Part shown: positions 29,328-50,789 of the stretch, in pieces
Layout: each line of letters opens with the position of its first letter
Position numbering within the stretch: position 1 is the stretch's first letter
Assembly (NCBI GenBank): GCA_964462205.1
Contig: CAYWWW010000007.1
Location: 28,149 to 92,148 of the forward strand
Reading direction: 5' to 3'
DNA length: 64,000 bases
Source of the DNA: an uncultured Cardiobacteriales bacterium
GTDB taxonomy: Bacteria; Pseudomonadota; Gammaproteobacteria; CAYWWW01
Made by a program: the position numbers and the translations under genes
The notes under the pieces: generated by a model
Database searches by the model: none
Told to the model about the DNA's origin: nothing
What the model saw: the letters and a program-made list of their open reading frames with translations, nothing else

Positions 29328-32300
29328 TTAGCGTTGTTGTAAGACTAAAGCCATCAACAACCGATTGCTTGGGCTGACGCTCGCCAATTTCCCCTTGATC
29401 GTCGTCTCAAGCCATGCTTGTGCCGCCGGACTTTGACCGCTGACCAAGGCACCAACCAAAGCTGCATCTAAAAGATAGGTGATGGCTTGGGTGTTTTTGT
29501 CGGCCAAAGCATCCGGCAGCAGCTTTTGCGCCAAGTTCCACATGGCTTGGGCATCCCGATGCGCCACGGCTTGATACAAAGCATTCCAATCCTTAACTTT
29601 TTCTGAAGGGTCAGGACAATTTTGCCAAGTCAGATCATTCCAAAGTTCCAAGCGTTCGTTTTCCGGCAGATAAACTAAAGTCAATTGCGCAAAGACCAAA
29701 AGATTTTCTAGCCAATCGGCTTCACCAGCAAAATCGCGGCAATGCTGCTGTACCAGATGCGGCACATAGCGCAGATTGTGAACAAAATCGCTTTTTTCGC
29801 TTTTTTCGTCATTGGAATGCTTGAGTTGTTGATAAAAATCACGGGCAATCAATAACTCATTGCGATAGTTTAAAAAAGCATCCGGCGTGACCGACCAGGG
29901 CAAGGCCAGTCTCGGATGGCCGCCGAGCATTTCCTGTACCGGAATACTGCTTTTCAAAATACTTTCCAAGCCTTGCGCGCCTTCCCTGAAAAATAGGCTC
30001 TTTGGTGCTTGTAAACTTAACAGCGGATAAAAATCCGAATTGGCGGCGATGCCAAAGTCTTGAAACCAAGCATCCAGCGTCGCTTTGCTGCCGACAATCC
30101 GCGCTTCCGCCAAAGTTTTTTGGTCTAAACCAACGGCAGTTAATTCAGCTAACACCTGTTCTTGCTGCCAAGGAAAGTCACTGAGCAACGGCACTTGTTG
30201 GTTTTTGCTGGCGATAATCACCAAATCCCCGCCATTGGCCATCAGCACCTCGTAATCGGCAAAATGTGCCGATAACCCTTTGAAAACCGACGCTAATAGC
30301 GCATCGTTGAGTTCATAAACGTGCATCCATTGCACCAACAAGCCGTTGTCGGTTAAGGAGCGGCCAATATTTTGGTAAAACTCTTGACTAAACAAAGTGC
30401 CAACGCCGCTGACCCAGGGATTGGAAGGTTCGGAAATGATCAAATCATAGCGGTTGCCAGTTTTGGCAAAAAAGGCTTTGGCATCGTCAATGACCAAGAG
30501 GGAGCGTGGGTCTTCGTAGGCACGGCGGTTGCGTGGCAGGAATTGCTTGGCGCCTTCGATCATCATCGGTTCGATTTCAATGGTTTCAACTTTTTCAATG
30601 CTTTCAAAGCCTAACAGCACCTGGGTGCTTAAACCGGAACCAAACCCGATCACAGCGGCGGTTTTGGCCTCGGGGAAATACGCCGGACCTAGACTGCCCA
30701 GTAGCACCATGGTGGCCTCGTCGCTGGCGGGGGGGGCAATTTTGAAGGTTTCGGCGTTTTCGCCTTCAGGAACGGCGATAAAACGGCGCAAGGCTGCATC
30801 CGGTTTGCCGTTGGTCATAATGCTTTGGCTGTCGGCATCCGGTGTTTGGGTGACGGCCACGGTAGCGGTTTTGCCATCGCGCAGAAAAACCACGTTGCTT
30901 TGCTCGCCGATGTCGGTGCGGGCATAGCGAAAAACACCGGAACTCATTTGCCGTGGTTCCAGTTCAACGTAGTAAACCAGGCCTGTCCAAATGCCTAAGC
31001 CCATGAGACTGGCGGCGACAAAGCGCAATGCCTGTTGTCCGGGTTTGGCGGCGATCAACAAAATAATCCCTAAGAGAATGTCCAAACCTGCACCCACCGC
31101 CAAGAGCATTTTTAAGCCATAGCTTGGCATCAACCAATGCACGGCAATGAGTACACCGATGATGGCGCCAACGGTATTGATGGCATAGACCTGACCGATG
31201 CTGTTTTCCCGACCGCCGCGTTGTAACAAGGCTTGGGTAAATAAGGGCAAGGTCATACCGGCAAAGAAAGTCGCGGGGAACATGATCAACAAGGCAATGC
31301 CGTGGCTGAAAATCGAAAACAAGGCAAAACCGCCATCATTGCGCTGCACGCTGTTTAAGATAAATTTCATCCAGTCAAAGGATTGGCTGTAGAGCCACAA
31401 GGTGCTGATGGCAAAAATGCCCATGAGAATCTGAATGCTGCCTGCCCAAAGCAGCGGGCTTTGCATGGCATCCAGACGCTTACGAATCCACAAACCGCCG
31501 AAGGCTAAACCAGCGATAAAAGCACTTAACATGATTTCAAAGGCATACATGGTGCTGCCAAAGACCATGCTTAACAGCCGAATCCAAGCGATTTCATAGA
31601 TAAAGGAGGCTAAACCGGTGAAAAAAGCTGCAAATAAAATCAAGGCGGCAAAAAGCCAGAATGAAGCCGAGGCGGGTTTGTCTTCAGGGTTGCTTTTGGC
31701 AGCCGGTAAATCGGCAAAATCGGCATATTTGGCAATCCCATAGGCGACTAAGGCCACGGCGATGTTCAATAAACCGGCGGTAAAAATCGTCCCGGGTAAA
31801 CCCAAGGCCGGCATCAGCAAAAACACGCTGGCCAAAGCACCGATAGCCGCGCCTAAGCTATTGGTAAAATACAGCAAGCCGAGATTTTGCCCTGATTTTT
31901 CCGGCTGATAGCGTAAAAATACCGCCGTCATCAGTGGGAAGGTCATGCCGAGTAAAATCGTTTGCGGGAAAATCAAAAGACTGGCGCTGGTAAAGCGATA
32001 GGCATCCACCCAATTTTCTGGTAAAGCCGGAATAATGGTTTCCAAAGAAAGACTTAAAAAGCCTTTGAATGCCGGATCAAAAAGCAGTCCCAACAGACCG
32101 ATGATGCCTTCAATCAAGGCATAGCCCAAAAGCACGGCGCGGATTTTGTGCGAGTAAAGACTTGCGAGCCAAGCACCGAGTGCCAGGCCACCCATAAACA
32201 CCACCAAAACCACCGTTTGGGCATAGGCGCTATGGCCTAGATAAAGCCCTAAATAATGTGACCAGATGGATTGATAGACGAGACCGGCAAAGCCGGAGAG

Positions 32301-32330
32301 GATAAACAACAGAAAAATGGTCAAGCGCAT
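29328..32330 (-). CDS. Fused membrane domain / spermidine-synthase-like SAM-fold protein
   Basis: Duplicated multi-TM unit (SGFAGLVYQ / TGLASFIYE), IGFGSGLS, DDAKAF, DLIISEPSNPW. Confidence 0.85.
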   Translation of the reverse strand: MRLTIFLLFILSGFAGLVYQSIWSHYLGLYLGHSAYAQTVVLVVFMGGLALGAWLASLYSHKIRAVLLGYALIEGIIGLLGLLFDPAFKGFLSLSLETIIPALPENWVDAYRFTSASLLIFPQTILLGMTFPLMTAVFLRYQPEKSGQNLGLLYFTNSLGAAIGALASVFLLMPALGLPGTIFTAGLLNIAVALVAYGIAKYADFADLPAAKSNPEDKPASASFWLFAALILFAAFFTGLASFIYEIAWIRLLSMVFGSTMYAFEIMLSAFIAGLAFGGLWIRKRLDAMQSPLLWAGSIQILMGIFAISTLWLYSQSFDWMKFILNSVQRNDGGFALFSIFSHGIALLIMFPATFFAGMTLPLFTQALLQRGGRENSIGQVYAINTVGAIIGVLIAVHWLMPSYGLKMLLAVGAGLDILLGIILLIAAKPGQQALRFVAASLMGLGIWTGLVYYVELEPRQMSSGVFRYARTDIGEQSNVVFLRDGKTATVAVTQTPDADSQSIMTNGKPDAALRRFIAVPEGENAETFKIAPPASDEATMVLLGSLGPAYFPEAKTAAVIGFGSGLSTQVLLGFESIEKVETIEIEPMMIEGAKQFLPRNRRAYEDPRSLLVIDDAKAFFAKTGNRYDLIISEPSNPWVSGVGTLFSQEFYQNIGRSLTDNGLLVQWMHVYELNDALLASVFKGLSAHFADYEVLMANGGDLVIIASKNQQVPLLSDFPWQQEQVLAELTAVGLDQKTLAEARIVGSKATLDAWFQDFGIAANSDFYPLLSLQAPKSLFFREGAQGLESILKSSIPVQEMLGGHPRLALPWSVTPDAFLNYRNELLIARDFYQQLKHSNDEKSEKSDFVHNLRYVPHLVQQHCRDFAGEADWLENLLVFAQLTLVYLPENERLELWNDLTWQNCPDPSEKVKDWNALYQAVAHRDAQAMWNLAQKLLPDALADKNTQAITYLLDAALVGALVSGQSPAAQAWLETTIKGKLASVSPSNRLLMALVLQQR

Positions 32331-32464: not shown

Positions 32465-33028
32465 TCAGAAGGTAATGTCCTCGTACACCTGCGCTATCGG
32501 CAGATCCAAAGCCAAGCAGTTTAAGTAAATGCTGCCTTCGCTGTAGAAATGGTGTGTCCAGCCATTGCTGCCACGCCGATAAACCTCGACTTGCCGTTGA
32601 TCCTGGGCGACCAAAACATATTCTTGCAAACTCGCAAGCCCGCCGGTGTAAGCCAATAATTTTTCGCGCCGGTCAATGCGGGCAGTAGAATTGGACAGCA
32701 CCTCAATGAGTAAACAAGGACTTTGGCGGTAGTAAGTATGGCGATCCGTTGCCTCACAACTAAGCAGGAGATCAGGATAGTAAAAAAAGGTTTCGTCTTC
32801 CTGTTCAATGCGTACTTTCATGTCACTCGTAAACAATTGACAGCGACGTTGACGGGCAGCAGGCGTGAGTGCGAACGCCAAAGCATTGACAATCAAGCCA
32901 TGCCGGTCACTTGCCCCGCCCATAGCGTAAATTTGCCCGCTGACATATTCATGACGGATTTCGTCGTTTTGCTCCAAAACTAAATATTGTTCAACGCTAA
33001 ATGGTAACAGCTTAACAATAGCATTCAT
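32465..33028 (-). CDS. Uma2 (DUF820) family endonuclease-fold protein
   Basis: RHEYVSGQIYAMGG, YYPD, IEVLS, DRREK, EYVLVAQD. Confidence 0.92.
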   Translation of the reverse strand: MNAIVKLLPFSVEQYLVLEQNDEIRHEYVSGQIYAMGGASDRHGLIVNALAFALTPAARQRRCQLFTSDMKVRIEQEDETFFYYPDLLLSCEATDRHTYYRQSPCLLIEVLSNSTARIDRREKLLAYTGGLASLQEYVLVAQDQRQVEVYRRGSNGWTHHFYSEGSIYLNCLALDLPIAQVYEDITF

Positions 33029-33785
33029 AATAACTCCGTATCTTCGTAAATTTCAGAAAGGCTTAGCTTTAGATCAAGGCAAGGCAGCCAAAAACTGCCT
33101 TCGGTGTAAAGCTCCGGCAACCACTGACTTTCCACTCGCCGATAGACCTCGACTTGCCGTTTGTCCTGGGCAACCAAAAGATAGGCTTGCAAACTGGCTA
33201 ATTGGGTGTAAGCCAATAATTTTTCGTGCCGGTCAATGCGGGCAGTAGAATTGGACAGCACCTCAATGAGCAAACAAGGACTTTGGCGGTAGTAAGTATG
33301 GCGATCCGTTGCCTCACAACTAAGCAGGAGATCAGGATAGTAAAAAAAGGTTTCGTCTTCCTGTTCAATGCGTACTTTCATGTCACTCGTAAACAATTGA
33401 CAGCGACGTTGACGGGCAGCAGGCGTGAGTGCGAACGCCAAAGCATTGACAATCAAGCCATGCCGGTCACTTGCCCCGCCCATAGCGTAAATTTGCCCGC
33501 TGACATATTCATGACGGATTTCGTCGTTTTGCTCCAAAACTAAATATTGTTCAACGCTAAATGGTAACAGCTTAACAATAGCATTCATAATAACTCCGTA
33601 TCTTCGTAAATTTCAGAAAGGCTTAGCTTTAGATCAAGGCAAGGCAGCCAAAAACTGCCTTCGGTGTAAAGCTCCGGCAACCACTGACTTTCCACTCGCC
33701 GATAGACCTCGACTTGCCGTTTGTCCTGGGCAACCAAAAGATAGGCTTGCAAACTGGCTAATTGGGTGTAAGCCAATAATTTTTC
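32645..33785. repeat. 560-bp direct tandem duplication
   Basis: 32645-33225 matches 33205-33785 at offset 560, with differences seen at 32667/33227 and 32711/33271. Confidence 0.9.
33025..33588 (-). CDS. Uma2 family protein, chimeric copy
   Basis: N-terminal ~127 aa match the 32465 copy; C-terminus matches the 33585 copy. Confidence 0.9.
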   Translation of the reverse strand: MNAIVKLLPFSVEQYLVLEQNDEIRHEYVSGQIYAMGGASDRHGLIVNALAFALTPAARQRRCQLFTSDMKVRIEQEDETFFYYPDLLLSCEATDRHTYYRQSPCLLIEVLSNSTARIDRHEKLLAYTQLASLQAYLLVAQDKRQVEVYRRVESQWLPELYTEGSFWLPCLDLKLSLSEIYEDTELL

Positions 33786-34151
33786 TCGCCGATCAGTACG
33801 AGCCGTCGAGTCCGAGAGCACTTCAATGAGCAAACACGGGCGGCGGAGGTAATAGTCTTCGTAGTCGGTGGCATCGCAAGCCAAGACCAGATCCGGGTAG
33901 TAAAAAAAAGTGTCCTCTTCCTGTTCAATTCGCACTTTCATGTCACTCGTAAATAGTTGACAGCCACGTTGACGGGCAGCAGGCGTGAGCGCGAACGCCA
34001 AGGCATTGACAATCAAGCCATGCCGGTCACTTGCCCCGCCCATAGCGTAAATTTGCCCGCTGACATATTCATGACGGATTTCGTCGTTTTGTTCCAAGGC
34101 TAGGTAGTCTTTGACCGTCAACGCATTTATTTTTTGAGCAGTGATTGTCAT
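33585..34151 (-). CDS. Uma2 family protein
   Basis: Same motifs; GGAGGG RBS. Confidence 0.92.
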   Translation of the reverse strand: MTITAQKINALTVKDYLALEQNDEIRHEYVSGQIYAMGGASDRHGLIVNALAFALTPAARQRGCQLFTSDMKVRIEQEEDTFFYYPDLVLACDATDYEDYYLRRPCLLIEVLSDSTARTDRREKLLAYTQLASLQAYLLVAQDKRQVEVYRRVESQWLPELYTEGSFWLPCLDLKLSLSEIYEDTELL

Positions 34152-34307
34152 TTTTCCCTCCTTCGTTACCTAACTGACTTAAATAACAGTTTATAGTAGT
34201 GAATGACCGGCAAGAAGGCGAGCGGCGTTTGGTTGGTGGCGGCTGCCAATTCCGTTAAATTGCCGTTTGCTTTGGTGATGATTTCTTAAAACTTGTTTGG
34301 AGGACGT

Positions 34308-34868
34308 ATGGCAGCAGCACGCGGAGCGCAGGCGCTTACCGCAGCACAATATCTGGCTTTGGAAAATGAACGTCAAGAAAAGCATGAATTTATCAATGGC
34401 GAAAGCTATGCTATGGCCGGTGCTTCAGCAGCGCATGTTACCGTCAGTCTTAACTTGGCAGCGGCGTTAAAAGCGCATCTGCGCGGCACGCCCTGTCAAG
34501 CCTTTATTGCCGATATGAAACTTTATGTGGCAGCGCGCGATGCTTATTTTTATCCCGATGTTTTTGTTATTTGTGGTGGTGAACAACGCGCCAAGCAACA
34601 GGCGAAAAGTGATGCTTTGTTGATTGTCGAAGTGTTATCGCCAAGCACGGAAGCCTTTGATCGGGGAGCGAAATTTGCCCATTATCGCCGCTTGCCTAGT
34701 CTTAAAGAGTATGTATTGGTTGATCTTGCCAATCGTACTGTTGATCTCTATCGTCAAGGTGCGGATGGTTTGTGGGTGCTACATCCTTACGGCGCCGACG
34801 ATACAATGGAACTCGTCAGCGTGGGCTTGAAGCGGTTGGTGGAAGAAGTTTTGGAGGGGGTGGAGTGA
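34308..34868 (+). CDS. Uma2 family protein (divergent orientation, more distant paralogue)
   Basis: KHEFINGE.YAMAG, FYPDV, VEVLSPSTEAFDRGAKF; GGAGGA RBS. Confidence 0.92.
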   Translation: MAAARGAQALTAAQYLALENERQEKHEFINGESYAMAGASAAHVTVSLNLAAALKAHLRGTPCQAFIADMKLYVAARDAYFYPDVFVICGGEQRAKQQAKSDALLIVEVLSPSTEAFDRGAKFAHYRRLPSLKEYVLVDLANRTVDLYRQGADGLWVLHPYGADDTMELVSVGLKRLVEEVLEGVE

Positions 34869-37898: not shown

Positions 37899-38935
37899 GG
37901 CTTAGACTTGTGTATTTGGGGTAAAGAAACGTTTTTTCTTTTAGAAATCAAATGATGCTTGAGTAAATAGTATATTTTATAAATAAACATGAATTTATTT
38001 ATAAAAATTAGTGCTAAAGCAAAAATAAACCCTTTGTCGCTTTTGAGTGCATTGTTCATAATTGAAAAAGCGGAGCTTTTTCTGTTGCATGTCAATATCT
38101 GTGCTTTCACCAAGAAATATTTTTTTACCAAGGTCTCAAGTAGATGAGCATGTTTTTTTTCTAGTCTTTTTAAATCTAATATTCGTTGCTCGATGAGAGC
38201 TATCTCTCTTTTATGATGCTTCAGTCTATGTTCTGAATAAGGAGGATATTTAAGTGGATCCTCCCAGCTAAAAGATATACCAACAGTTTGCCGATATTTA
38301 ATGGTGGGTTGATTTATATAAAAAATTTCTCCAATGAGCTTTGCACGTGCAGGCCACACAGAATCTTCAGTAATAATGTCACTCTTTAAATTGCCAAAGA
38401 CAGAAAATATTTCCCGAGATAGCGCACATGATGCGCCATGCGCATAAGCATTTGGTTCTAGTAGTATTTGCTCAAGGGATTTGCTGTAAACCTTTTGATC
38501 ATCTTCACGAATAAAAAGATATTCACCTGCTTCAGAGATGGCAATAGCACTGGAATAGAACAGGTGGATATTTTTGTTTTGTAGCCATTGTTGAACAATA
38601 AGCTCTGTTCTTTCCGGTAGGGAGATATCATCCCCTGCTGCCAAAACAATCAACTTTCCAGAAGATAACCCAACCACTTTGTTTATATGATCGGCTAAAC
38701 CAAGATTACAGGTATTCCTGTTTAAAGTAACGCGATGTTTTCCTTTATAATCATTGGCCATTTTTTCCATTACCGCAAAAGTTTCATCCTGAGAGCAATC
38801 ATCCGACAAAATAATCTCTAACGGTTCATAAGTTTGAGAAAATGCACCTTCAACCGCCTCACGGATATATTTTTCTTGGTTATAAGCAAACAGCGCAAAA
38901 GTCACCAAAGGGCGTTCAGATATCAGGTTTTTCAT
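37895..38935 (-). CDS. Glycosyltransferase, GT2 family
   Basis: AYNQEKYI, LSDDCSQD, AAGDDIS, TED. Confidence 0.9.
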   Translation of the reverse strand: MKNLISERPLVTFALFAYNQEKYIREAVEGAFSQTYEPLEIILSDDCSQDETFAVMEKMANDYKGKHRVTLNRNTCNLGLADHINKVVGLSSGKLIVLAAGDDISLPERTELIVQQWLQNKNIHLFYSSAIAISEAGEYLFIREDDQKVYSKSLEQILLEPNAYAHGASCALSREIFSVFGNLKSDIITEDSVWPARAKLIGEIFYINQPTIKYRQTVGISFSWEDPLKYPPYSEHRLKHHKREIALIEQRILDLKRLEKKHAHLLETLVKKYFLVKAQILTCNRKSSAFSIMNNALKSDKGFIFALALIFINKFMFIYKIYYLLKHHLISKRKNVSLPQIHKSKP

Positions 38936-40454
38936 CCATACCTTCCTTATGTTTTATTGGCCAACCGATCAGCGCATAAAAGCGCACAAGGCGTTCAATA
39001 AAGCGGCCAGTACCACCAATTTTAATTAACACCAGGCGCAAACCAAATAATCCAGTTGCAGCAGCAAGTATCACCGAAACTATTGCAGCAGAAATAGGTA
39101 AAAGCAAAGCCAGTACCAGAAGTGCCGTAGCGAGGCTGACATGCAGGCCAAGCAGGAACAGCGAAAGCCTCTGCCAGCGGAAGCCATGGATGCGCTGTGC
39201 TAAAAGATTGGCAGTCAGAAAATAAACGATGTAGCTCAAGACAAAGGCAAAGGCAGTTACAGATAAACCAACGGTAGGTAAGAGCAGCCACACCATAAAC
39301 AAAAATACAATATTAAAGCTCATTTCCATGAAAAAAAATGTTGTGGAACGTGCCGCAGCAACAATCGAAAAGCTCAATGCCCAGCTTGCTAACTTGAACA
39401 CATTACCCAGTGTCTGCCACTGAAGCAGTGCCACGGCAGGCGCAAATTCCGCTGAGTAAAGCAAGGTGATCACCCAAGGCGCAAGGCCAATCAAAAGCAA
39501 TAACATCGGCCCGCCAATGGCGAGACCTAATTGTGCTTGATCATTCATTAAGCGAACCGCTGCAACGCGGTCATGAATAACCTCGGTGAGTCTTGGATAA
39601 TAATCCGCTCCCATAGCATTCAGTAAAAAACCAATGTAGATGATGGTGATGCCCCAAGCCGCTGCGAAATGTCCGGCAGCGTCAAGACCCAATTGCTGTG
39701 TAATTTGTCCTTGTACCAGTAGCAGTGTTGCCGCTGTAATCAATCCACCGAGCATAAAAGCTGTGCCTAGCTTGGCAAGCGCCAGCCATGCTGACCAAGT
39801 TTCCGCTAAAGATAGAGCGATAGCGACGGGTTTAGGCAGACGGCGGGTGAAGTACAGTGCGATGAGCACGGTACTCAAAGGCTGGACGAGGACAAACCAG
39901 ATCAGGCCATGTTCACCCAAGAACCAGAGCACACCTAGACCGACTATGGTGCCGATAAATGAAGAAAAAATGGTTACACGGCTTAAGTCAGCGATGTGTC
40001 GCAGACCTTGCAACAAGGCAGTTTGTGCAGAAGCCAGCAGTGACAGCAGAATGGCAACCCCAATCAAGCCAACTTCGGTTGCATGGGTAGCATTGCCAAA
40101 AAGGAGAAGCGCAATGGGTTCACGCAGTAACCAAACCAACACCATCGCCAAGGCACCCTGAAATAGATGTGCTGCAAACAATACCCGACGCACCCGACCT
40201 AAGGTTGTTATTTCGCCACGCGCTGCCGCGATCTCTCGCACACCGCTTGATCCCATGCCTAAACCGGCGGCGGTGACAACCAGGTTATGCAGGCTATTGT
40301 AGATGCTCAATAAGCCCACCCCGGCTGGTCCAAGTAAAACGGCCAGCACTTTCATCCTGATAATCAAGATAATAATGTTTACCGCCTGTGCTGAACCAAT
40401 GATCAGCATGGATTTAATTAGACCGCGTGAATTGGCTTCACTGTCTGTACTCAT
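38916..40454 (-). CDS. wzx: Wzx-type oligosaccharide flippase
   Basis: Twelve or more TM helices; AVLLGPAGVG, DYYPRL, LLYSAEF. Confidence 0.88.
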   Translation of the reverse strand: MSTDSEANSRGLIKSMLIIGSAQAVNIIILIIRMKVLAVLLGPAGVGLLSIYNSLHNLVVTAAGLGMGSSGVREIAAARGEITTLGRVRRVLFAAHLFQGALAMVLVWLLREPIALLLFGNATHATEVGLIGVAILLSLLASAQTALLQGLRHIADLSRVTIFSSFIGTIVGLGVLWFLGEHGLIWFVLVQPLSTVLIALYFTRRLPKPVAIALSLAETWSAWLALAKLGTAFMLGGLITAATLLLVQGQITQQLGLDAAGHFAAAWGITIIYIGFLLNAMGADYYPRLTEVIHDRVAAVRLMNDQAQLGLAIGGPMLLLLIGLAPWVITLLYSAEFAPAVALLQWQTLGNVFKLASWALSFSIVAAARSTTFFFMEMSFNIVFLFMVWLLLPTVGLSVTAFAFVLSYIVYFLTANLLAQRIHGFRWQRLSLFLLGLHVSLATALLVLALLLPISAAIVSVILAAATGLFGLRLVLIKIGGTGRFIERLVRFYALIGWPIKHKEGMDEKPDI

Positions 40455-41980
40455 GCGAAACTTTTCATTACAGCAACAATATCAGCTACCTGCGGCACAC
40501 CCAAATGTGCGCCCATCGGCAGACTGAGCACGCTGCTTGCCAGGTCACAGGCGATAGGCAGTTGATTGTTTGCTAGGTTAAGACTTGCATAGGCTTTTTG
40601 TTGATGCGGTGCAATGGGATAGTGAATCAAGGTGCCAATGCCTGCTTCTTTTAAGCGCTGTTGCAGTTCATCACGATTTTTACTGCGTACCACATAAAGA
40701 TGCCACACCGCTTCGACCCAGTCAGGGACATCAGGCAAGACTAAGCCGCTGTTTTTTAGCCCTTCGCTATAGGCGGCGGCAAGGGCACGACGGTGTGCAT
40801 TGGCGGCATCAAGGTGCTTGAGTTTGACCCGTAAGACTGCCGCCTGAATCGGATCAAGGCGAGCGTTCATGCCAAGTTCTTCATTGACATATTTTTGTTT
40901 TGAACCGTAGTTGCGCAATACGCGGATACGATCAGCTAGATCAGCATGATTGGTGGTAATCGCCCCAGCATCACCAATCGCCCCTAAATTTTTTCCCGGA
41001 TAAAAACTCCAGCACACCACATCACCATGCCCGCCTAGGCGTTGGCCTTTGTAACGCGCACCATGCGCCTGCGCCGCGTCTTCAACTACAAAAAGACCAT
41101 GGCCATGGGCAATGGCAAGAATCGGATCAAGATCAGCCGGTTGTCCATAAAGATGCACAGGCAGAATGGCGCGGGTATTGGCCGTGATGGCCGCTTCAAT
41201 TTTCAAAGGATCAATGTTGTAGGTGGTTGGATTGGGTTCAACGGCTACAGGCTTTGCCCCCACTGCGGAAACCGCCAACCACGTGGCGATATAAGTGTTT
41301 GAAGGTACGATGACCTCATCCCCAGTGCCAATGTCCAGTGCTTTAAGCGCCAAGATCAAAGCATCCAGTCCATTGGCCACACCAACAGCGTAGTTGGCTT
41401 GACAATACTCTGCCCATTCTTTTTCAAAGGCTTCGACTTCCGCGCCTAAAATATACCAGCCTGAGTTCACTACCCGATCAAAACCCTCTTCAAAACCACT
41501 ATGGTAGGGTTGGTTAATGGCTTTTAAGTCGAGGAAAGGAATTGGTTCGGCAGAAGCGAATGGTTCGGGCAAGGCCAAAAACGCTTCGATGGAAATCGTC
41601 CATGGCGAACGTGCCAAAAAGTCTTGATCACGGGTGATGATTTTAGCGTCAATGCTTTTGGCCGAGGCTTCAATGAGATAATCCTCTATATCAAGCTGAA
41701 AAAGCGAGTGGGTTCTGTCTAAATAGGAAGGCGTCTTAGCGAATGAAAATAAGTTTAAAAATAAAGACCATTCTTGTTGAATATCTTGAATTTTTCGACT
41801 TTTCTTAGCTTCACGAAAGAAGATAAAACGAATGTTGTGTAGCTGCGATGTGGACAAAAAAAGCGTGGCGTAGGTTCTTAATTTTTTGTATAGCAAATAG
41901 ATATTAGGCGAGACATCCGTTCTATCCAGCAAAATATCCAGCGCAATATTGACATCAATAATAAAGCGCTTATTTTCCAT
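40451..41980 (-). CDS. PIN domain fused to a DegT/DnrJ/EryC1/StrS (FdtB/QdtB-like) sugar aminotransferase
   Basis: N-terminus IIDVNIALD...DIED...ITRDQDF (PIN); from IPFLDLKAIN onward: NGLDAL, EDAAQAHG, SFYPGKNLGAIGDAG (PLP lysine); start placed at MENKR. Confidence 0.9.
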   Translation of the reverse strand: MENKRFIIDVNIALDILLDRTDVSPNIYLLYKKLRTYATLFLSTSQLHNIRFIFFREAKKSRKIQDIQQEWSLFLNLFSFAKTPSYLDRTHSLFQLDIEDYLIEASAKSIDAKIITRDQDFLARSPWTISIEAFLALPEPFASAEPIPFLDLKAINQPYHSGFEEGFDRVVNSGWYILGAEVEAFEKEWAEYCQANYAVGVANGLDALILALKALDIGTGDEVIVPSNTYIATWLAVSAVGAKPVAVEPNPTTYNIDPLKIEAAITANTRAILPVHLYGQPADLDPILAIAHGHGLFVVEDAAQAHGARYKGQRLGGHGDVVCWSFYPGKNLGAIGDAGAITTNHADLADRIRVLRNYGSKQKYVNEELGMNARLDPIQAAVLRVKLKHLDAANAHRRALAAAYSEGLKNSGLVLPDVPDWVEAVWHLYVVRSKNRDELQQRLKEAGIGTLIHYPIAPHQQKAYASLNLANNQLPIACDLASSVLSLPMGAHLGVPQVADIVAVMKSFA

Positions 41981-42263
41981 ATTTTTCCTGAAGGGCTTCA
42001 GCCAGCAATTCATCATCCGATTTGCAAGATAGGTGATGATAATCAGGCGGCAAATGCGTGAGTTTAAGCGTCAAATATGGATCACCGCCCAATGCTTCAT
42101 TGAGTTCATGAAGTTGTTGAACCGTGCTTTTTTTTAGCTTTGATTTTAATTGCGCTGCCGTTTGCGTATCCACTTCAACGATAAAACCCTCCAGATCAAT
42201 ATCCAGATGCTCCAAAGCCGGAATAACAAACTGTCCATTTTTCTTAATGACGTGTAGCTTCAT
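41970..42263 (-). CDS. Putative antitoxin partner of the PIN domain
   Basis: 97 aa; stop overlaps the PIN-fusion start; beta-rich N-terminus; C-terminal LQEKY like other PIN-associated antitoxins (from recall). Confidence 0.6.
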   Translation of the reverse strand: MKLHVIKKNGQFVIPALEHLDIDLEGFIVEVDTQTAAQLKSKLKKSTVQQLHELNEALGGDPYLTLKLTHLPPDYHHLSCKSDDELLAEALQEKYGK

Positions 42264-42292
42264 TTTTATTTATCTAACGAATGTGTATTTGC

Positions 42293-42736
42293 TTAAAAAT
42301 TTGAAGTGCTGTTTTGTTCTCGCGCTGCACACAAAAACGCTGCATAATCACGATAATAGTCTGCTTCATCATAACGCTGCGATGCTAACACCATACATAC
42401 CGCGCCTTGGCTGAAGCTGTCCATCTCGCGCCAGATCAAACGACTGATGTACAAACCCTTGCGTGGATCACGCAGCCAGTACTCAGATTTTTGATAACCA
42501 TCATCAATTTCTATGCGAAAACTCCCTGATAAGGCAAAGACCACTTGTTCCAGCGCTTTGTGCGCATGTCCACCGCGCTCGGAATCCACGGGGACATTGT
42601 AGAGATAGTAAACCCGCGCTATTTGGAACGGGATATGCTTGCCGCCTTCGATAAAAGTCAGATCGCCGCGTGGGTCATGAATTTGCGGGAGTTGGATTTC
42701 GCGGATAATACCATTATCTAAATTTATTTTATTCAT
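42293..42736 (-). CDS. dTDP-4-keto-6-deoxyhexose 3,4-ketoisomerase (FdtA/QdtA cupin)
   Basis: DPRGDL, RVYYLYNVP, RGGHAHK, VCMVLAS..YDEADY.RDY. Confidence 0.93.
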   Translation of the reverse strand: MNKINLDNGIIREIQLPQIHDPRGDLTFIEGGKHIPFQIARVYYLYNVPVDSERGGHAHKALEQVVFALSGSFRIEIDDGYQKSEYWLRDPRKGLYISRLIWREMDSFSQGAVCMVLASQRYDEADYYRDYAAFLCAAREQNSTSNF

Positions 42737-43902
42737 AATCCAAGTTTTATAGCTGACAAAGGATGATAGCTTTTCAAATCATTCCCGAAAAAATCTATTT
42801 GTTCGGGATCAGCGTGATACTCAAGCAAGACTTTTACTACCTCTTCTGGTTTCTTCCCCGAGAGTGCATACATGAGCGGGGTAGTGCCGTTGCTATTAGT
42901 GCAATTCGGATCAGCCCCAGCATTAAGCAGGAGACGACAGAGTGCTGTGTTGCCTGCATAGGCAGCTTTGATAAGAGGTGTCCATCCGTTTTTGTCTTTA
43001 ACGTTAATTAAACTTGTATCCATCCTGTAGCTGGAGTCATCTGCAGTTAGCGTAAACCAGTCCCAAACGCAGGATCGAGTGAGACGAAGCTTATAGTCAA
43101 TAGTTGAAAGTGTGATGCACTCTGAATCCTGTTCAAGTACCGTACCAGGTTTTTCACGACTGATTTCTGGGAGAATTTCCCATCCACCCACATCAAGTCC
43201 TTTAACGACAGGGGTTTGGTACTCACGGAAGGAAAATGCGCGGAGCTGGCTGATTATTCCCTCAGCAGTATTTTTTAGGTCTATGGTAATCTTATTATAG
43301 TTGATGGAAGATTTTGAAAAATAAGTTGAACCTTTGGCAGACTGGGGTGTGCTTTCGGGCGGCTTATTAGCTGTAATTTTTTCAAAATAATCACAAAAAA
43401 GCCTTAGTCCATAGTCCATATAAGCGAAGTAGAGGTCGCGGGCAGTCCAAGTCGCGGGCAGATCGAAAGAAATTTGCGCAATGATAGCCCCGGTATCGAT
43501 GCCAGCATCGATTTTGTGTAAGGTTACACCACTATGGGCTGCGCCATGTAAAATCGGAAGCGCTGAAGTGTACATCCCCTTATATGCCGGAAGCCGTGAA
43601 AAATGAATATTGTAGAGTCTATCAGTTCTGAAGGTGCTTGGTTTTATAATCAGGTCATACTCTAACGAGATAAAAATCAGATCTTCAATTTTTTGTGCTG
43701 TTTCAAGTGTTACCACTTCAACATTGAACGCATTTGCAAAGCGGATAAGCGAAGGTTGCCAGTTGGAGGTGCCACTGTCAGTTCGGTTTGGACAAACAAT
43801 GAGTCTGTTCTTCCAGCCGTGCTTAACCATATGCAGGAGTGCGCCAACTGCGATTTCGTTTTTGCCAGCAAGACAAATTTTTTTGGAATCCAACTTCATC
43901 AT
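42733..43902 (-). CDS. Sugar N-formyltransferase with C-terminal ankyrin repeats (QdtF-like architecture)
   Basis: NIHFSRLPAYKG, GVTLHKIDAGIDTG; ankyrin GWTPLIKAA..G and GTTPLMYA. Confidence 0.88.
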   Translation of the reverse strand: MMKLDSKKICLAGKNEIAVGALLHMVKHGWKNRLIVCPNRTDSGTSNWQPSLIRFANAFNVEVVTLETAQKIEDLIFISLEYDLIIKPSTFRTDRLYNIHFSRLPAYKGMYTSALPILHGAAHSGVTLHKIDAGIDTGAIIAQISFDLPATWTARDLYFAYMDYGLRLFCDYFEKITANKPPESTPQSAKGSTYFSKSSINYNKITIDLKNTAEGIISQLRAFSFREYQTPVVKGLDVGGWEILPEISREKPGTVLEQDSECITLSTIDYKLRLTRSCVWDWFTLTADDSSYRMDTSLINVKDKNGWTPLIKAAYAGNTALCRLLLNAGADPNCTNSNGTTPLMYALSGKKPEEVVKVLLEYHADPEQIDFFGNDLKSYHPLSAIKLGL

Positions 43903-45183: not shown

Positions 45184-46062
45184 CTACTCTCTTGCCGCTT
45201 TTTTCCCCTGCGCCAACATATACATCATCTGCGTTAATTGTTCGGAAATCAGTCCGATTAAGAAAATGATCACCGCGCTGGTCAATAAAAACAGCGTTGC
45301 CAATGACAAACGCCCCTCGCTTAAAAAAGTAAAGGCGTAATAGCCAAGCCCCAACAGCAGATGCAGCAGCGCCACCGGACCAAATAGCTTCATTGGCGCG
45401 TAGAGCGTAGCGATTTTGAAAATAATCAACAAAAAACGCATCCCGTCTTTAAGCGGACGAATATGGCTTTTGCCGAGGCGCTTATGCACGGTAATGCCTT
45501 GATAACCCACTGCATAGCCACTTCTAAAAAACGCCATGGTAATGGTGGTAGGATAGGAAAAGCCATTGGGCAACAGCGAGAGAAATTCCAAAAACTTCTC
45601 CCGATAGACGACGCGAAAGCCGGAGGTTAAATCCAAAATTTTCTGCTCGGTCATCCAACTGGCCAAGCGGTTGTACAAGCCATTGGCCAACAAGCGTCCC
45701 ATGCCAGCCTGATCACTTTGCTGCAAACGCGCCCCGACCACCATGGCATAGCCTTCGCTTAATTTGGCCAACAGCGTCGGAATATCCGCCGGATCATGCT
45801 GACCGTCGCTGTCCATAAACACCAAAATCTCGCCTTTGGCCGCCCGCGCACCGGCTTTGATCGCCGCACCGTTGCCCAAAGATTGCGGATGCTTGATGAC
45901 GGTAATACCTAAATCTCCAGCAATTTGGCTGCTGTCATCACTTGAGCCATCGTTGACCAAAATAATTTCCGCCGCCGGTTGGGCGGCTTGGAGTTTGGGC
46001 AGCAGGCTTTTGAGGCTTTCGCCTTCGTTTTTACAGGGCAGAATAATTGAGAGGGTCGTCAT
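45184..46062 (-). CDS. GT2 glycosyltransferase with two C-terminal TMs (polyprenol-phosphate glycosyltransferase-like)
   Basis: VNDGSSD, FMDSDGQHDP, DLTSGFR. Confidence 0.88.
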   Translation of the reverse strand: MTTLSIILPCKNEGESLKSLLPKLQAAQPAAEIILVNDGSSDDSSQIAGDLGITVIKHPQSLGNGAAIKAGARAAKGEILVFMDSDGQHDPADIPTLLAKLSEGYAMVVGARLQQSDQAGMGRLLANGLYNRLASWMTEQKILDLTSGFRVVYREKFLEFLSLLPNGFSYPTTITMAFFRSGYAVGYQGITVHKRLGKSHIRPLKDGMRFLLIIFKIATLYAPMKLFGPVALLHLLLGLGYYAFTFLSEGRLSLATLFLLTSAVIIFLIGLISEQLTQMMYMLAQGKKAARE

Positions 46063-47930
46063 TTTTCTTGTAATTCCTGCAGGCGTTGTTCAATCAAACG
46101 CGCCGTGGCCGGCTTTTTGAAGCGCAAGGCTTGCGCAAAGGTGGTTTGTGCTTCGTTGAGTTTTTCTATCGCCAAGTCATACAAACCGGCTGATGCTAAA
46201 ACATCCACCATGTGCAAGATAATGTTGATGTTTTTATCTTTTTTATAAGCTGCTTCCAGATGCAACATGGTGTTTTCTAAGTCACGCAGCGCGATATAGG
46301 CGCGGGCGGCGAGAAAGTCTGGATTGCCCCGGTACATAGCCGCGCCTTTTTGCTGCGATAAGGCTTCCATCAGCTTGATGTAATCAGGCCAAGCCATAGC
46401 ACAACTGCCCACGGCAATCGTCTCATACAAGCCTTTGCTGCTATTGGTGGCGAAATTTTCAAAAGACAAGGCGGCCAAGGTTTTTTGCCACTGTGCCAAG
46501 GCGTCTGGCGTTAAAGTACCGCGTCGGCATTGCTGTTGAATCACCAGCAAAATCACCCCACTGCTTGCCGGTGCCGCTTGATAGGCACGCTCCAGATAAT
46601 AGTCTTGCTGGTCTTCGTCACCGATAAGGCGCATGACGTTATAGGCTTCTAGTTGGGCGCGATAAGAGTGCGGATTTTCGGCTGCCCACACCACTGCCAA
46701 TTTGATAGGAGCGCCCCAGAGCTTGGCCTGTTCAGCGGTGATCCAGGCGCTATAAAGCAGCAGAGCGGCAAAAGCGATCCATACCAATTCCTTGACTTTA
46801 TTACGCAGATGCAAGACCGCATAAGCCAGCGCGACTAAAGGTGCCAACAGTGGCAAATAATTGCGATGCCAAAAGGCAAACTCCAAGCCGGTAATGGCAA
46901 AGGTTTCCAACAGATGGCCGGCGACAAACCAAGCGATGGCAAAACTCAACACCCAATAGCGACTACGGCGCAGCCAAAAAGCCAAGCCAAGCAAACTGAC
47001 CCAACCGAAAGCCGCCAAAACCGTCAGCGGTTGCCAAAAGGAACTGACCACCGCGTAATGGCTATAAATACCCCAACCGGCAACGGGCGGTAAGAGAATT
47101 TTCCGCAGATAATCAAAAGCAATACCCAGTTGACTATAAAAACGCTCGGCAGGGCTGAAGTCCCGAAACGGCAAGCCGCTGCTGAACGTCCCATAGGCCA
47201 GATAGCCAAGATAGCCAAGCAACAACAACGCCGGCACATAGAGAAAAAACCCGGCCCAACGGCCAAAACAAGGCGGCGGTATGTGCGCGTTTGGCCGCAA
47301 CCAAAAAAACTCGATGACCAATAGATAAAAAATCAGTAATACGCCGTTTTCTTTGCTAAAAATGGCCAGCAGTCCAAAAATGCTCACAGCAAGACTCATC
47401 AAGCCAAATCCTACCCAAGGTTTCCGATGCGCCAGGCTGCGGCCATAGAGGTAGCCGATCATCCCCGCCAGGCTAAAAAGTGCCGCCAGTTCGGTCATGC
47501 GTTGGACGACGTAAAGCGTTGTGCTAATTTGCATCGGGTGCAGCAACCACCAGGCGGCAACGATCAGGCTCAGGCTAAAGCGATAGCTTTGCTGTTTAAG
47601 CAACAACCACAGCAGCCAAAAAATCAGCACGCCATTGAGCAGGTGCAAAAGCAGATTGGTGTATTTGAAGGAAAAAACCGAGGCAGGCGGCCAGTTGTTG
47701 TCGTTAATTAAAAAGCTCGCCATGCTGATGGGGCGACCGGTCGGGCCGGAAGTATTGCCCAGCACATATTCCCAGAAAGTTTGCGCATTGGTGATGCCAC
47801 CGCTATCGCCTAAGGCTGCTAAATTACCATTGTCATCAAAATACAGCCCGCCATCTAAACCCGGCGCATAGAGAAAAAAAGCTAAAAATAACAGGCCAAT
47901 AAACAAACTAAAACGCAGCAGAACCAGCAT
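46059..47930 (-). CDS. TfpW/TMTC-like GT-C membrane glycosyltransferase with TPR-like tail (putative pilin glycosylation enzyme)
   Basis: First-loop FDD, GRP, TNLLLHLLNG, LHP, VQRM, SKE, HRNYLP; directly downstream of the pilin genes. Confidence 0.7.
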   Translation of the reverse strand: MLVLLRFSLFIGLLFLAFFLYAPGLDGGLYFDDNGNLAALGDSGGITNAQTFWEYVLGNTSGPTGRPISMASFLINDNNWPPASVFSFKYTNLLLHLLNGVLIFWLLWLLLKQQSYRFSLSLIVAAWWLLHPMQISTTLYVVQRMTELAALFSLAGMIGYLYGRSLAHRKPWVGFGLMSLAVSIFGLLAIFSKENGVLLIFYLLVIEFFWLRPNAHIPPPCFGRWAGFFLYVPALLLLGYLGYLAYGTFSSGLPFRDFSPAERFYSQLGIAFDYLRKILLPPVAGWGIYSHYAVVSSFWQPLTVLAAFGWVSLLGLAFWLRRSRYWVLSFAIAWFVAGHLLETFAITGLEFAFWHRNYLPLLAPLVALAYAVLHLRNKVKELVWIAFAALLLYSAWITAEQAKLWGAPIKLAVVWAAENPHSYRAQLEAYNVMRLIGDEDQQDYYLERAYQAAPASSGVILLVIQQQCRRGTLTPDALAQWQKTLAALSFENFATNSSKGLYETIAVGSCAMAWPDYIKLMEALSQQKGAAMYRGNPDFLAARAYIALRDLENTMLHLEAAYKKDKNINIILHMVDVLASAGLYDLAIEKLNEAQTTFAQALRFKKPATARLIEQRLQELQEK

Positions 47931-47998: not shown

Positions 47999-48418
47999 TC
48001 ATGGCCGACAGTTGCTTGGCCGATATTTGTTTAGCACACTGCCACCAGTGCAATCCCAAGCAATACCACCACCGGTCGGCGTGGCCTTCAAGGTCAAGGT
48101 ATTGTTGGCCGGATCCACATTGGCTTTATAAGCAATGGTGATCACACTTTCATTGACGGTGACACTGTCCACCGAGCCGGAAATAATAGCGGTAGGTGCC
48201 GCCAAGCCAGCCTCGGCATTGCTTGTCGGCCATTTGCCTTGCAAGGCATAAAAATCCCACAGACCAGCTTTGGCACCCGAGGCCAAGCTCAGGCCATCGG
48301 CGACGCGACTGCGCTTGGTGTAGTCCTGATAGGCCGGTATCGCCACCGCCGCCAAAATACCGATGATCGCCACCACAATCATCAATTCAATCAAGGTAAA
48401 GCCTTGGCTGTTGTTCAT
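47999..48418 (-). CDS. pilA: Type IVa pilin (second copy)
   Basis: QG|[27 protein letters not shown]; C-terminal disulfide loop. Confidence 0.92.
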
Positions 48419-48440
48419 GCTATCTCCTGACAATTTAGGC

Positions 48441-48467
48441 AAAAAAAAGGAGGGCAACGCCCCCCTT
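48441..48467 (-). terminator. Intrinsic terminator between the two pilins
   Basis: Minus strand AAGGGGGGC-GTT-GCCCTCC-TTTTTTTT. Confidence 0.75.
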
Positions 48468-48503: not shown

Positions 48504-48914
48504 TTAACGACAGTTCGATGGACGATATTTGGCTTCAACAGTACCGCCTTTGCAGTCCCATTCAACAGATCCATCTGTGTCTGCACCTTGCAATGCAAGA
48601 GTTTTACCAGCAGTGCCTACTTTGACGTTGTAGGTGATGGTGATTAAAGATTCGTTAACAACAACACCAGTTACCGCATTACCAGTGATGGTAGCGGACA
48701 AACCAGCCGCTGCGTTGTCAGCAGGCCAGGTGCCGTTGGAAGAATAAAATTCAGTCACAGAAGTTTTGGCACCGGCAGCCAAGCTCAAGCCTTCAGAAAC
48801 GTGGGCACGACGGGTGTAGTCTTGATACGCAGGAATCGCGATAGCAGCCAAAATACCGATAATCGCAACCACGATCATCAGTTCGATTAAAGTAAAACCT
48901 TTCACATTACGCAT
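48504..48914 (-). CDS. pilA: Type IVa major pilin
   Basis: KG|[27 protein letters not shown]; GGAG RBS; C-terminal WDC...NCR. Confidence 0.95.
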
Positions 48915-48972
48915 GGAAGTCTCCAAAAAAATTATTAAAAGTGGAAAGAGGCTGGCGCCCCATAAGCTACAA

Positions 48973-48989
48973 AGCAAAGGCCGTGCCAA
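48973..48989 (-). promoter_or_regulatory. Sigma-54 (-24/-12) promoter of pilA
   Basis: TTGGCACGGCCTTTGCT matches the TGGCAC-N5-TTGC consensus. Confidence 0.9.
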
Positions 48990-49151
48990 GTTTTTTTTGT
49001 GGCTTGCTCTGCCGGCGGCTAGCGCTTGGCAATGAATGGCAAATGAATGCCTTGGCGATTTTTGCTGGCTTTGCAAAAAAATGGCTGTGGTAATAAAAAA
49101 ACAGCTTGCGGCGTTTTTGCTGCGCTGTCTGGGCAGCCAACTGTAAGAACT

Positions 49152-49205
49152 TGACAAAAGTTATGGTCGTTTTTGGTTTTTTGGTGACAGCTTTGGTCGT
49201 TTTTT
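49152..49205. promoter_or_regulatory. Candidate enhancer-binding protein (PilR-type) sites
   Basis: Two imperfect direct repeats TGACA...TGGTCGTTTTT, about 160-215 bp upstream of the sigma-54 promoter. Confidence 0.4.
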
Positions 49206-49374: not shown

Positions 49375-49821
49375 GTGGCCTGTAATGGATGTGAGTTTAT
49401 TCCCGAACTCTATTACGACGCCGAATTTCAAATCTGGATTCGCGTCGAGAGTGATGGCCTGTTGACCGTCGGCATGACCGATCTGTCGCAAACAATTGCC
49501 GGTAAAATCCTGCACTTGCGCGTGCGTAAACCCGGCACCCGCCGCCCGCCTGGCAAACCGGTCGCCACTATTGAAAGCGGCAAATGGGCCGGACCTATCC
49601 CCAATTTTATTGACTGCGAAATTGTTGCCGCTAATGGCGAAGCCTTGGAAAATCCGGTGCTTCTGAATAGCGACCCCTACAACGCTTGGGTGGCGCAAGT
49701 CAAAAGTGTGCTGCCAGTCGAAGAAGCCTTGGAAAATTTTTTAACCGGCGAAGCCGCGCAGCAAGGCTATTGTGAGCGGGCACGCCGCGAGGATATTCAA
49801 TGTCAACGCATGATGAGCTAA
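49375..49821 (+). CDS. lbpA1: Lipoate-binding protein (GcvH-like)
   Basis: TIESGKWAG lipoyl-lysine motif; N- and C-terminal cysteines; no gcvP/gcvT nearby. Confidence 0.85.
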   Translation: MACNGCEFIPELYYDAEFQIWIRVESDGLLTVGMTDLSQTIAGKILHLRVRKPGTRRPPGKPVATIESGKWAGPIPNFIDCEIVAANGEALENPVLLNSDPYNAWVAQVKSVLPVEEALENFLTGEAAQQGYCERARREDIQCQRMMS

Positions 49822-49826
49822 ACACA

Positions 49827-50228
49827 ATGACCGAATATGAATTAGACGGCCTAGGCGAAGGCAAAAAAGTCGTCATTTTGATGACCAGCGGCCCCTCCAC
49901 CCCGAACCGCTGTGCCACGCCCTTTTATTTGGGCGCGATTTTGGCCTCCATGGAAGTGGAAGTGCATATTTTCTTTACCATGGAAGGCGTGAAACTGATG
50001 CAAAAAGGCATCCCGGAAACCTTAACGGCGATGGCTGGCGGCAAAACCATCATTGACTTTATCCGCGATGCCAAACGCGCCGGTGTCTCCCTGCACCTCT
50101 GTTCTCCGGCCTTGCCGGGCTATAACATTTCCGAAGAAAGCGATATTATCGCCGAGGTTGATAGCGTAGATCGCGCCAGCGCTTTGGCCGATTTATTATT
50201 GACAGCCGATAAAATTATTACTTTTTAA
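49827..50228 (+). CDS. DsrE-family sulfurtransferase-like protein
   Basis: RCATPF, VHIFFTMEGV, LHLC; located between two lbpA genes. Confidence 0.85.
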   Translation: MTEYELDGLGEGKKVVILMTSGPSTPNRCATPFYLGAILASMEVEVHIFFTMEGVKLMQKGIPETLTAMAGGKTIIDFIRDAKRAGVSLHLCSPALPGYNISEESDIIAEVDSVDRASALADLLLTADKIITF

Positions 50229-50257
50229 CTTTTTACTACCACAACAAGGAGCTATTT

Positions 50258-50698: not shown

Positions 50699-50731
50699 GC
50701 GCCATTTCTGCTTGCCTAAAGCCTAAACCCT

Positions 50732-50765
50732 AAAGACAGGTGCGTGTATCTCGCCCTGTCTTTTT
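50732..50765 (+). terminator. Terminator/attenuating hairpin after lbpA2
   Basis: AAAGACAGG...CCTGTCTTTTT. Confidence 0.65.
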
Positions 50766-50789
50766 CTTTATTTTTTAGTGAGTTGTTTT

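Follow-up and report, generated by a model that had tools for sequence, protein, structure and literature searches.

A predicted VapC-type PIN domain fused to a sugar aminotransferase, and its small partner gene, recur in glycan gene clusters of many phyla

Introduction

The toxins of toxin–antitoxin (TA) systems are almost always free-standing small proteins, and the VapB antitoxins sit on their VapC toxins over the helices beside the catalytic pocket. FdtB and QdtB are dTDP-3-keto-6-deoxyhexose 3-aminotransferases, which act together with FdtA/QdtA isomerases and N-acyl or N-formyl transferases. In bacterial genomes, surface-glycan loci rank among the regions most prone to recombination and most exposed to phages. 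Here, we describe a gene of an uncultured Cardiobacteriales bacterium in which a VapC-like PIN domain is joined in frame to an FdtB/QdtB-like aminotransferase of the DegT/DnrJ/EryC1 family (DegT) and which overlaps a small gene directly upstream. The gene lies in a 64,000-nucleotide (nt) stretch of contig CAYWWW010000007.1, referred to as the window. All positions are those of the whole window, and residues of the fusion protein are numbered from its MENKRF start (41980).

The closest described systems are the VapBC pairs of Shigella flexneri (3tnd/5ecw), Rickettsia felis (VapBC2, 3zvk), Caulobacter (VapBC1, 5k8j), and M. tuberculosis, together with Pyrobaculum PAE2754 (1v8p). The module shares with them the PIN fold, a co-oriented and conserved small gene directly upstream that overlaps the PIN gene, the predicted placement of the C-terminal helices of the partner over PIN helices 1–4 beside the acidic pocket, and conserved Asp residues after strand 1, before helix 5, and after strand 4. 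It differs from them in that the PIN domain is the N-terminal third of a 509-amino-acid (aa) enzyme, Asn or Thr stands in place of the second catalytic acid, no match to AbrB, RHH, Phd, or HTH was obtained for the partner, and the pair lies inside a biosynthetic operon; the identity to solved VapCs is 12–18%, with no sequence match in the PDB. Its best Pfam match is PIN_3 (PF13470; COG1569), which is covered over the whole profile and whose cut-off is passed by several relatives; however, the domain of the window falls below this cut-off, and the subfamily of the module has an invariant KTP motif of its own. The aminotransferase resembles FdtB/QdtB in its DegT domain with an invariant lysine and in the FdtA and formyltransferase genes immediately upstream, and its unfused relatives at 68–74% identity start with MIPFLDL. 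Unlike these, the enzyme of the window is extended at its N-terminus by 146 residues with the PIN domain and lacks a separate start codon, and other members of the fusion family are found in different amino-sugar contexts (loci L014 and L016).

In passages of Matelska et al. 2017 (PMC5499597), PIN proteins of the PIN_3/COG1569 type are classed as TA toxins; these passages do not mention a DegT fusion ("degt", 0 occurrences), though the supplementary cluster lists of the article could hold such proteins uncommented. A literature search, which included TA systems in O-antigen clusters, found no paper on a PIN–aminotransferase fusion. The PIN–DegT module, for which no description was found, is apparently undescribed in print, and its parts (VapBC/PIN_3 and FdtB/QdtB) are known. 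On balance, we consider it probable that it is a conserved and recombining module derived from VapBC, consisting of a small protein and a PIN domain fused to a pyridoxal phosphate (PLP)-dependent sugar aminotransferase, in which the partner would mask a ribonuclease (RNase) and the whole would serve as a guard of the glycan locus.

The fusion gene and its junction

Homologues of the long open reading frame (ORF) begin at the equivalent of its second ATG (MENKRF), and an AGGA lies 6 nt upstream of this codon. Because the starts of the relatives match the second ATG and it is preceded by AGGA at this distance, the product was taken to be 509 aa (Table 1). The 11-nt overlap of the small ORF with this ATG, together with the AGGA, suggests that the small ORF and the fusion gene are translationally coupled. 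The sequence statements of the initial annotation (IIDVN, DIED, TRDQDF, the linker LPEPFASAEP, the junction codons, and the sizes and overlap of the ORFs) were all found in the DNA.

The DegT half matched DegT_DnrJ_EryC1 at full length and above the Pfam cut-off (389.3 bits, E = 2.4e-116, profile positions 10–359 of 360). Its K330, which we take to be the PLP-binding lysine of the DegT fold, was invariant among 16 fused proteins, and no NCBIfam equivalog model matched this half at its cut-off. The operon is ordered as formyltransferase, FdtA, small ORF, PIN–DegT, and flippase-like gene, followed by two GT2 genes. The formyltransferase gene overlaps FdtA by 4 nt, and the ATG of the flippase-like gene overlaps the stop codon of the fusion gene (ATGA). 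Judging from the neighboring FdtA and formyltransferase genes, the DegT half is FdtB/QdtB-like, and its substrate would be the FdtA product. The host genome, a 2.4-Mb assembly of 114 contigs, also encodes two unfused DegT paralogues (44% and 32% identity).

Contigs of three public runs, all belonging to one study, covered the region 41000–42400 and showed 0 differences from it; one of these runs may be the source of this DNA. In a second sample, a 925-nt contig spanned 41310–42234 unchanged, a segment that contains the complete PIN part together with the junction and the overlap of the two genes. Run X3 had no contig across 41752–42127, to which no weight was given. Because this contig was unchanged and the same architecture was found in 15 database proteins and 17 related loci (described below), the junction is real and not an assembly error, in agreement with its first description.

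Unfused relatives start with M(x)IPFLDL, and the same motif in the window follows ...SAEP without an ATG, the junction codons reading GAA CCA ATT CCT TTC. The linker contains no ATG or GTG. Over the 16 codons that precede the DegT motif, the only possible in-frame starts are TTG codons at residues 135 and 137, both without a Shine–Dalgarno match. Among the related loci, 7 of the 11 evaluated had no ATG, GTG, or TTG in the 16 codons preceding the DegT start motif; the motif pattern was unmatched in L010, L011, and L012. As the DegT half has no start of its own, the aminotransferase is probably made as PIN–DegT, and the proposal that it is made only as the fusion held up for the window and for most relatives, in which no plausible separate start was seen.

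A misassembly, or a recent accident in decay with the enzyme made from an internal start such as TTG 135 or 137, is highly improbable and has already been largely refuted. It could draw on the two TTG codons in the window and on the broken frames in 3 of the 17 related loci, but the TTG codons lack a Shine–Dalgarno match, most evaluated loci have no start codon near the junction at all, the junction is identical in the contigs of the second sample, and the same single frame is kept in 13 of the 17 loci and in the 15 database proteins. Moreover, the segment across the junction is the best conserved one between two Marinilabilia genomes (L011 and L012, 95–98% nt identity).

Recurrence across genomes and glycan clusters

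An indexed protein search scored on residues 1–145 retrieved 15 other fused proteins (494–532 aa), all with a DegT domain and with N-terminal parts 35–72% identical to that of the window. Their source names include Methylomarinum, Desulfobotulus, and Tenuifilaceae, and these proteins of approximately 510 aa are annotated in databases simply as "DegT/DnrJ/EryC1/StrS family aminotransferase". When the PIN part by itself was compared exhaustively with 1.84 billion representatives in phmmer (E ≤ 0.001), 43 matches were obtained, of which 21 carried a Pfam DegT domain, including all 17 of at least 250 aa. At least seven shorter matches reach the DegT start before they end or become garbled (P0020, P0022, P0026, P0031, P0046, P0052, and P0053), and in P0036 the PIN part is joined to the C-terminal end of a DegT domain. 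Among the classifiable matches, P0062 alone resembles an ordinary free-standing PIN_3 protein (73.7 bits). These matches suggest that the PIN subfamily is essentially confined to DegT fusions, which does not fit the initial picture of a free-living TA pair captured by, or welded into, a glycan pathway.

A scan of one genome per species, with a profile from a 4-sequence PIN alignment, identified 17 loci in Thermodesulfobacteriota, Bacteroidota, Bacillota, Pseudomonadota, Cloacimonadota, Campylobacterota, Leptospirales, and Ignavibacteriales. The fusion is a single open frame of 501–545 aa in 13 of them. L007 is fused as far as the contig end that cuts it, and three loci are broken (L013 and L019 within the DegT part; L020, a remnant). 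Pfam neighborhoods were scanned for 16 loci, the short contig of L007 being left out. Polysaccharide genes surround the module in 14 of these; L008 was too short to judge, and L019 had no glycan genes. FdtA adjoins the module just upstream in nine of the 16, and a GFO_IDH_MocA oxidoreductase and a hexapeptide acyltransferase take its place in L014 and L016. The PIN part was found in none of 40 relatives from the same class as the window's genome. The three-part module of small gene, PIN, and DegT is conserved across many phyla, mostly in glycan clusters. This recurrence, together with the conservation of the PIN part described below, refutes the idea of a neutral captured fusion unique to one assembly.

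Fold and active site of the PIN domain

The AlphaFold model of the PIN part, built from 26 sequences, had a mean predicted local distance difference test (pLDDT) value of 93.1, falling to 56 in its final block, and its order of strands and helices was that of PIN. When this model was searched with Foldseek, 21 PDB matches were obtained at E ≤ 0.001, and all those listed were PIN/VapC proteins with a probability of 1.0 and template modeling scores of 0.57–0.64. The best matches were PAE2754, Shigella VapC, Rickettsia VapBC2, Caulobacter VapBC1, and several M. tuberculosis VapCs; by sequence, the PIN part matched no PDB chain at E ≤ 10. The model thus places residues 1–135 in the VapC-type PIN fold, as had been read from the sequence motifs at first.

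The pocket was compared among 36 fused proteins. D9 was present in all 36, S/T43 in 34, D100 in 33, and D118 in 34, and D15, R20, K82, P84, and A107 were each invariant. Three of the four canonical metal-site acids are kept in the subfamily, and the fourth is systematically replaced. The cut-off of PIN_3 was passed by 7 of the 43 representatives and by three proteins of the loci (e.g., L009, 36.1 bits; L011, 33.1; P0046, 41.8; P0058, 37.1). Compared with several relatives, the PIN part was as conserved as the DegT part or more so (65% vs. 51% for P0006), and thus it does not appear to be decaying. The domain is putatively a Mg-dependent RNase, or would at least carry an RNA- or nucleotide-binding site.

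The small partner protein

A small ORF on the same strand abuts the PIN start in the window and at all 17 related loci, encoding 62–171 aa. The distance of its stop codon from the PIN start ranges from −16 to +10 nt in the relatives. The gap upstream of it is 29 nt in the window and 3–40 nt in several loci. The earlier suggestion that the small gene is a conserved partner is therefore upheld, as it accompanied PIN–DegT wherever co-occurrence was checked and its product was predicted to bind the PIN domain.

Two partner types were distinguished, which have a common N-terminal hairpin pattern. Type A ends in ...DDE.L.EAL.EKYGK, and type B carries LDYKELRG..IMERY.EK in the middle of the protein. 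All 10 type A partners were found beside a long-loop PIN, and all 8 type B partners beside a short-loop PIN. The 97-aa partner of the window was modeled as an N-terminal beta-hairpin followed by four helices (pLDDT 70.9).

In the predicted complex of partner and PIN, ipSAE was 0.81 in three runs, compared with 0.01 for the best of three controls, a prediction that supports binding of the small protein to the PIN domain. The mark used for ipSAE was reached by 116 of 157 solved complexes and by 2 of 215 mismatched pairs, a calibration that is rough only, as our own alignments were used. The runs agreed in at least 98% of contacts, with a partner pLDDT of at least 78. The contacts connect partner residues 47–93 with PIN residues 10–77 (helices 1–4), including residues 10, 11, 14, and 49 beside the pocket. 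PIN residues 19, 28, 32, 70, and 73 and partner residues 51, 54, 63, and 66 are also among the predicted contacts. The C-terminal half of the partner is thus predicted to bind PIN helices 1–4 beside the catalytic pocket. As VapBC complexes are present in the PDB, part of this score may reflect likeness to them.

The N-terminal hairpin pattern recalls, in our estimation, AF2212-like/DUF104 proteins (PF01954), a likeness that neither Pfam nor PDB sequences confirmed. In a protein atlas, the nearest clusters were unnamed, and the nearest named one carried PF01954 with a score of 0.80, rated as a lead only. None of the 18 small partners matched PF01954 in Pfam at E ≤ 5, and none of the 61 genomes searched, the window's own included, contained a member of that family. 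With no PF01954 match among the 18, no PDB sequence match, and only this lead, the partner was not filed as an AF2212-like/DUF104 member. An indexed search with the 97-aa partner returned only itself among 7 candidates; as this search requires shared 5-mers, the result is no measure of rarity.

A conditional defense or stress switch was also considered, in which degradation of the partner, or a pathway block or phage interference with the glycan sensed by the aminotransferase, would set the RNase free and lead to abortive infection or flux-coupled growth arrest. We regard this as improbable. A sensor-capable enzyme is fused here to an effector-type nuclease with a predicted masking partner, the patchy distribution (0 of 40 same-class relatives and 17 loci in many phyla) fits horizontal transfer, and small nuclease and TA genes abound in the glycan loci of the relatives. 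Nevertheless, no PADLOC family matched the PIN part or the partner (0 for each at E ≤ 1), no phage-related genes adjoin the module in the window or the scanned loci, and nothing points directly to a trigger.

Modular history and recombination

The DegT part of the window is 81% identical to that of the fused protein P0005, and the next-best matches (68–74%) are among 118 listed proteins without a PIN. The listed unfused relatives have 360–376 aa (typically approximately 364), except for P0133 (450 aa), which has an FdtA domain. The other fused proteins are 50–65% identical to the window in their DegT parts and 54–65% in their PIN parts. In sliding windows, the sequence was 47% like the fused and 15% like the unfused proteins at residues 152–166, and 65% and 91%, respectively, at residues 216–230, with the relation reversing from SGWYILG onward (mosaic switch point in Table 1).

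On the DegT-body tree, the window and P0005 grouped with 23 unfused enzymes in one clade, which had a support of 100 in the Shimodaira–Hasegawa-like approximate likelihood-ratio test (SH-aLRT). The unfused enzymes on this tree were drawn only from the nearest matches of the window, and owing to this sampling the tree cannot tell gain from loss. As an alternative explanation of the switch at residue ~170 in the window, the unfused enzymes may have lost the PIN and then changed their first helix.

Groups defined by the PIN part were rejected as clades on the DegT-body tree of the 36 fused proteins in approximately unbiased (AU) tests, both for the eight short-loop PINs (p = 1.9e-5) and for a PIN clade of 16 members with 97% support (p = 3.9e-10). 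These groups were named after an earlier DegT tree had been seen, and the short-loop group is based on an indel, independently of that tree. The two halves of the fusion, PIN and DegT body, thus differ in phylogeny. A single ancient fusion followed by vertical descent was rejected because the AU tests refuse the PIN-defined groups on this tree.

The two Marinilabilia salmonicolor loci L011 and L012 were compared over 5400–7700. Their nt identity was 43–63% over the small ORF and PIN residues 1–100, 88–98% from PIN residue 107 to DegT residue ~205, 75–87% over the DegT body, and 95–97% downstream. Their small ORFs have long, unrelated-looking N-terminal extensions (162 and 171 aa). Together, these comparisons indicate that recombination has exchanged the small gene along with the first ~100 PIN residues and, as a separate unit, the DegT body. 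What was swapped between these strains is the partner gene and the part of the PIN predicted to bind it, which is the behavior expected of a cognate pair.

Proposed function

In the favored reading, that of a VapBC-derived guard module, the co-translated small partner would mask a putative, potentially toxic PIN RNase. Through the fusion, the RNase and the glycan enzyme would share one fate, and the toxin could not be dropped or truncated without loss of the sugar. If the operon were lost or silenced, a long-lived toxin-enzyme would persist in the absence of its partner, which would amount to addiction to, or guarding of, the glycan locus.

Several observations weigh against this reading. The PIN_3 match of the window spans the whole profile, but its 20.3 bits (E = 0.001) are below the 27-bit Pfam gathering cut-off. 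At the second-acid position, which was located by alignment to P0062 as the canonical PIN_3 member, 35 of the 36 fused proteins have Asn or Thr (N49 in the window), and D100 is missing in individual close relatives (Asn in P0005 and Gly in P0010). Given the replaced second acid, the nuclease may be weakened or dead. The initial claim that most acidic active-site positions are retained holds for the nearly invariant D9, D100, and D118; the second acid is the exception. The small ORF lies inside the operon with a tight 29-nt gap to FdtA, into which an autoregulated promoter such as type II TA pairs typically have would hardly fit. Across the 18 small partners, no Pfam family was matched by more than one, and none was a DNA-binding family; their profile gave only chance-level matches to PDB sequences. 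Dimerization through the N-terminal hairpin would still be possible. Foldseek found nothing at E ≤ 0.001 with the partner model (of modest pLDDT, as given above), and PADLOC gave no match for the partner. The label "antitoxin-like" is accordingly borne out by adjacency and by covariation with the PIN type, but not by any recognized antitoxin or DNA-binding family. The complex score expresses model confidence only. Finally, the near-exclusive association of the PIN subfamily with DegT means that a dedicated accessory domain fits at least as well as a selfish toxin.

Such an exapted, non-toxic accessory domain is the main rival explanation, possible though in our view doubtful. The PIN and its partner would regulate or scaffold the aminotransferase through oligomer assembly, docking, or a nucleotide or RNA ligand, with no growth-arresting RNase. 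Apart from the confinement to DegT, it would account for the replaced second acid, the embedding of the module in operons with tiny intergenic gaps, the partner without an antitoxin-type DNA-binding domain in the Pfam and fold searches, and the invariant, family-specific K82-T83-P84 (KTP) at the pocket, which is missing from P0062. The three pocket acids kept in 33–36 of the 36 proteins are hard to explain for a pure scaffold, however, and the gene order, the overlap, and the predicted binding mode are those of VapBC. The partner and its binding surface were also swapped as a cassette between two strains of one species, a pattern that is typical of cognate toxin/antidote pairs and not of housekeeping scaffolds, and which counts against an accessory domain.

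A bolder form of the guard-module reading can be put forward, which we consider speculative and rather unlikely. The module would be a self-diversifying toxin/antidote cassette living specifically on sugar aminotransferase genes, which holds the glycan pathway hostage to the RNase by having replaced its start codon, such that loss, silencing, or truncation of the locus would kill the cell or cost it the sugar. Recombination at DIEDYLIE (PIN) and SGWYI (DegT) would move the cassette and swap partner specificities.

Features of the window and neighboring genes

The coordinates of the features are listed in Table 1.

Table 1. Positions of the module and the adjoining operon genes in the window
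Feature	Positions	Strand	Remarks
Small partner ORF	41970–42263	-	97 aa, antitoxin-like, without a known family; 29 nt downstream of FdtA
Long ORF	40451–42016	-	521 aa counted from the first ATG
Gene overlap ATGGAAAATAA	41970–41980	-	11 nt; end of the small ORF over the ATG of the fusion gene
PIN (VapC-like, PIN_3-type) domain	41576–41980	-	Fusion residues 1–135; key residues D9, S43, N49, D100, D118
Linker ALPEPFASAEP	41543–41575	-	Fusion residues 136–146
DegT/DnrJ/EryC1 (FdtB/QdtB-like) aminotransferase domain	40451–41542	-	Residues 147–509 and stop codon
Mosaic switch point	41470–41476	-	Approximate, ~residue 170, just before SGWYILG; from sliding-window identities
FdtA/WxcM-type 3,4-ketoisomerase	42293–42736	-	Pfam FdtA, E = 5.8e-51
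Sugar N-formyltransferase with C-terminal ankyrin repeats	42733–43902	-	Pfam Formyl_trans_N, 2.8e-11; Ank_2, 5.8e-16
Flippase-like membrane protein	38916–40454	-	Polysacc_synt, 24.9 bits, under the Pfam cut-off of 28.2

Beside the glycosyltransferase/formamido-sugar operon lies a gene for a 623-aa multi-pass membrane protein without a Pfam match (46059–47930), and two type IV pilin genes (47999–48457 and 48504–49157) are located directly upstream of it. Judging from this arrangement, the region may be an island for pilin glycosylation, in which the 623-aa protein would be a candidate oligosaccharyltransferase. The glycan cluster is bordered by four tandem Uma2 paralogues (32465–34868) (PF05685, "putative restriction endonuclease"; E values from 1e-34 to 1e-38), three head-to-tail on the minus strand and one on the plus strand. 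A row of genes at 49375–55286 encodes two GcvH-like proteins, a DsrE-like protein, two radical-SAM proteins, an LplA/B-type lipoate ligase, and a FAD protein, which we liken to the lipoate-binding-protein maturation set of sulfur-oxidizing heterodisulfide-reductase-like systems. A 1000-aa ORF at 29328–32330 has as its sole Pfam match a spermine/spermidine synthase domain (residues 552–695).

In the related glycan loci that bear the module, PDDEXK_3 genes were present in L005, L011, L014 (two copies), L015, and L018. L010 contained a 23S_rRNA_IVP and a YhcG PDDEXK gene, L011 a free PIN (PF01850), L018 a HipA plus HTH, and L017 a Uma2 gene within the glycan cluster; in L006, UPF0175 and DUF3368 directly followed the fusion gene. 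Other fusions of pathway enzymes were also seen, namely the FdtA–DegT protein P0133 (450 aa), a hexapeptide acyltransferase–FdtA fusion (L009:4424-5383), and a double FdtA (L013:175-1026).

Significance

Cultured carriers of the module exist (Desulfobotulus alkaliphilus and Marinilabilia salmonicolor), and its parts are small. The finding should be of interest to specialists in TA systems and in glycans. A VapC-type domain that is found essentially only at the N-terminus of a metabolic enzyme, is accompanied by its partner gene in many phyla, and moves as a recombining cassette would couple a nuclease to a biosynthetic pathway in a manner of its own. If the bolder reading above is true, such modules would form a new class, anchored on enzymes and acting in the addiction to, or guarding of, variable surface-glycan loci. 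If it polices the retention or expression of such loci, it would bear on the upkeep of glycan diversity.

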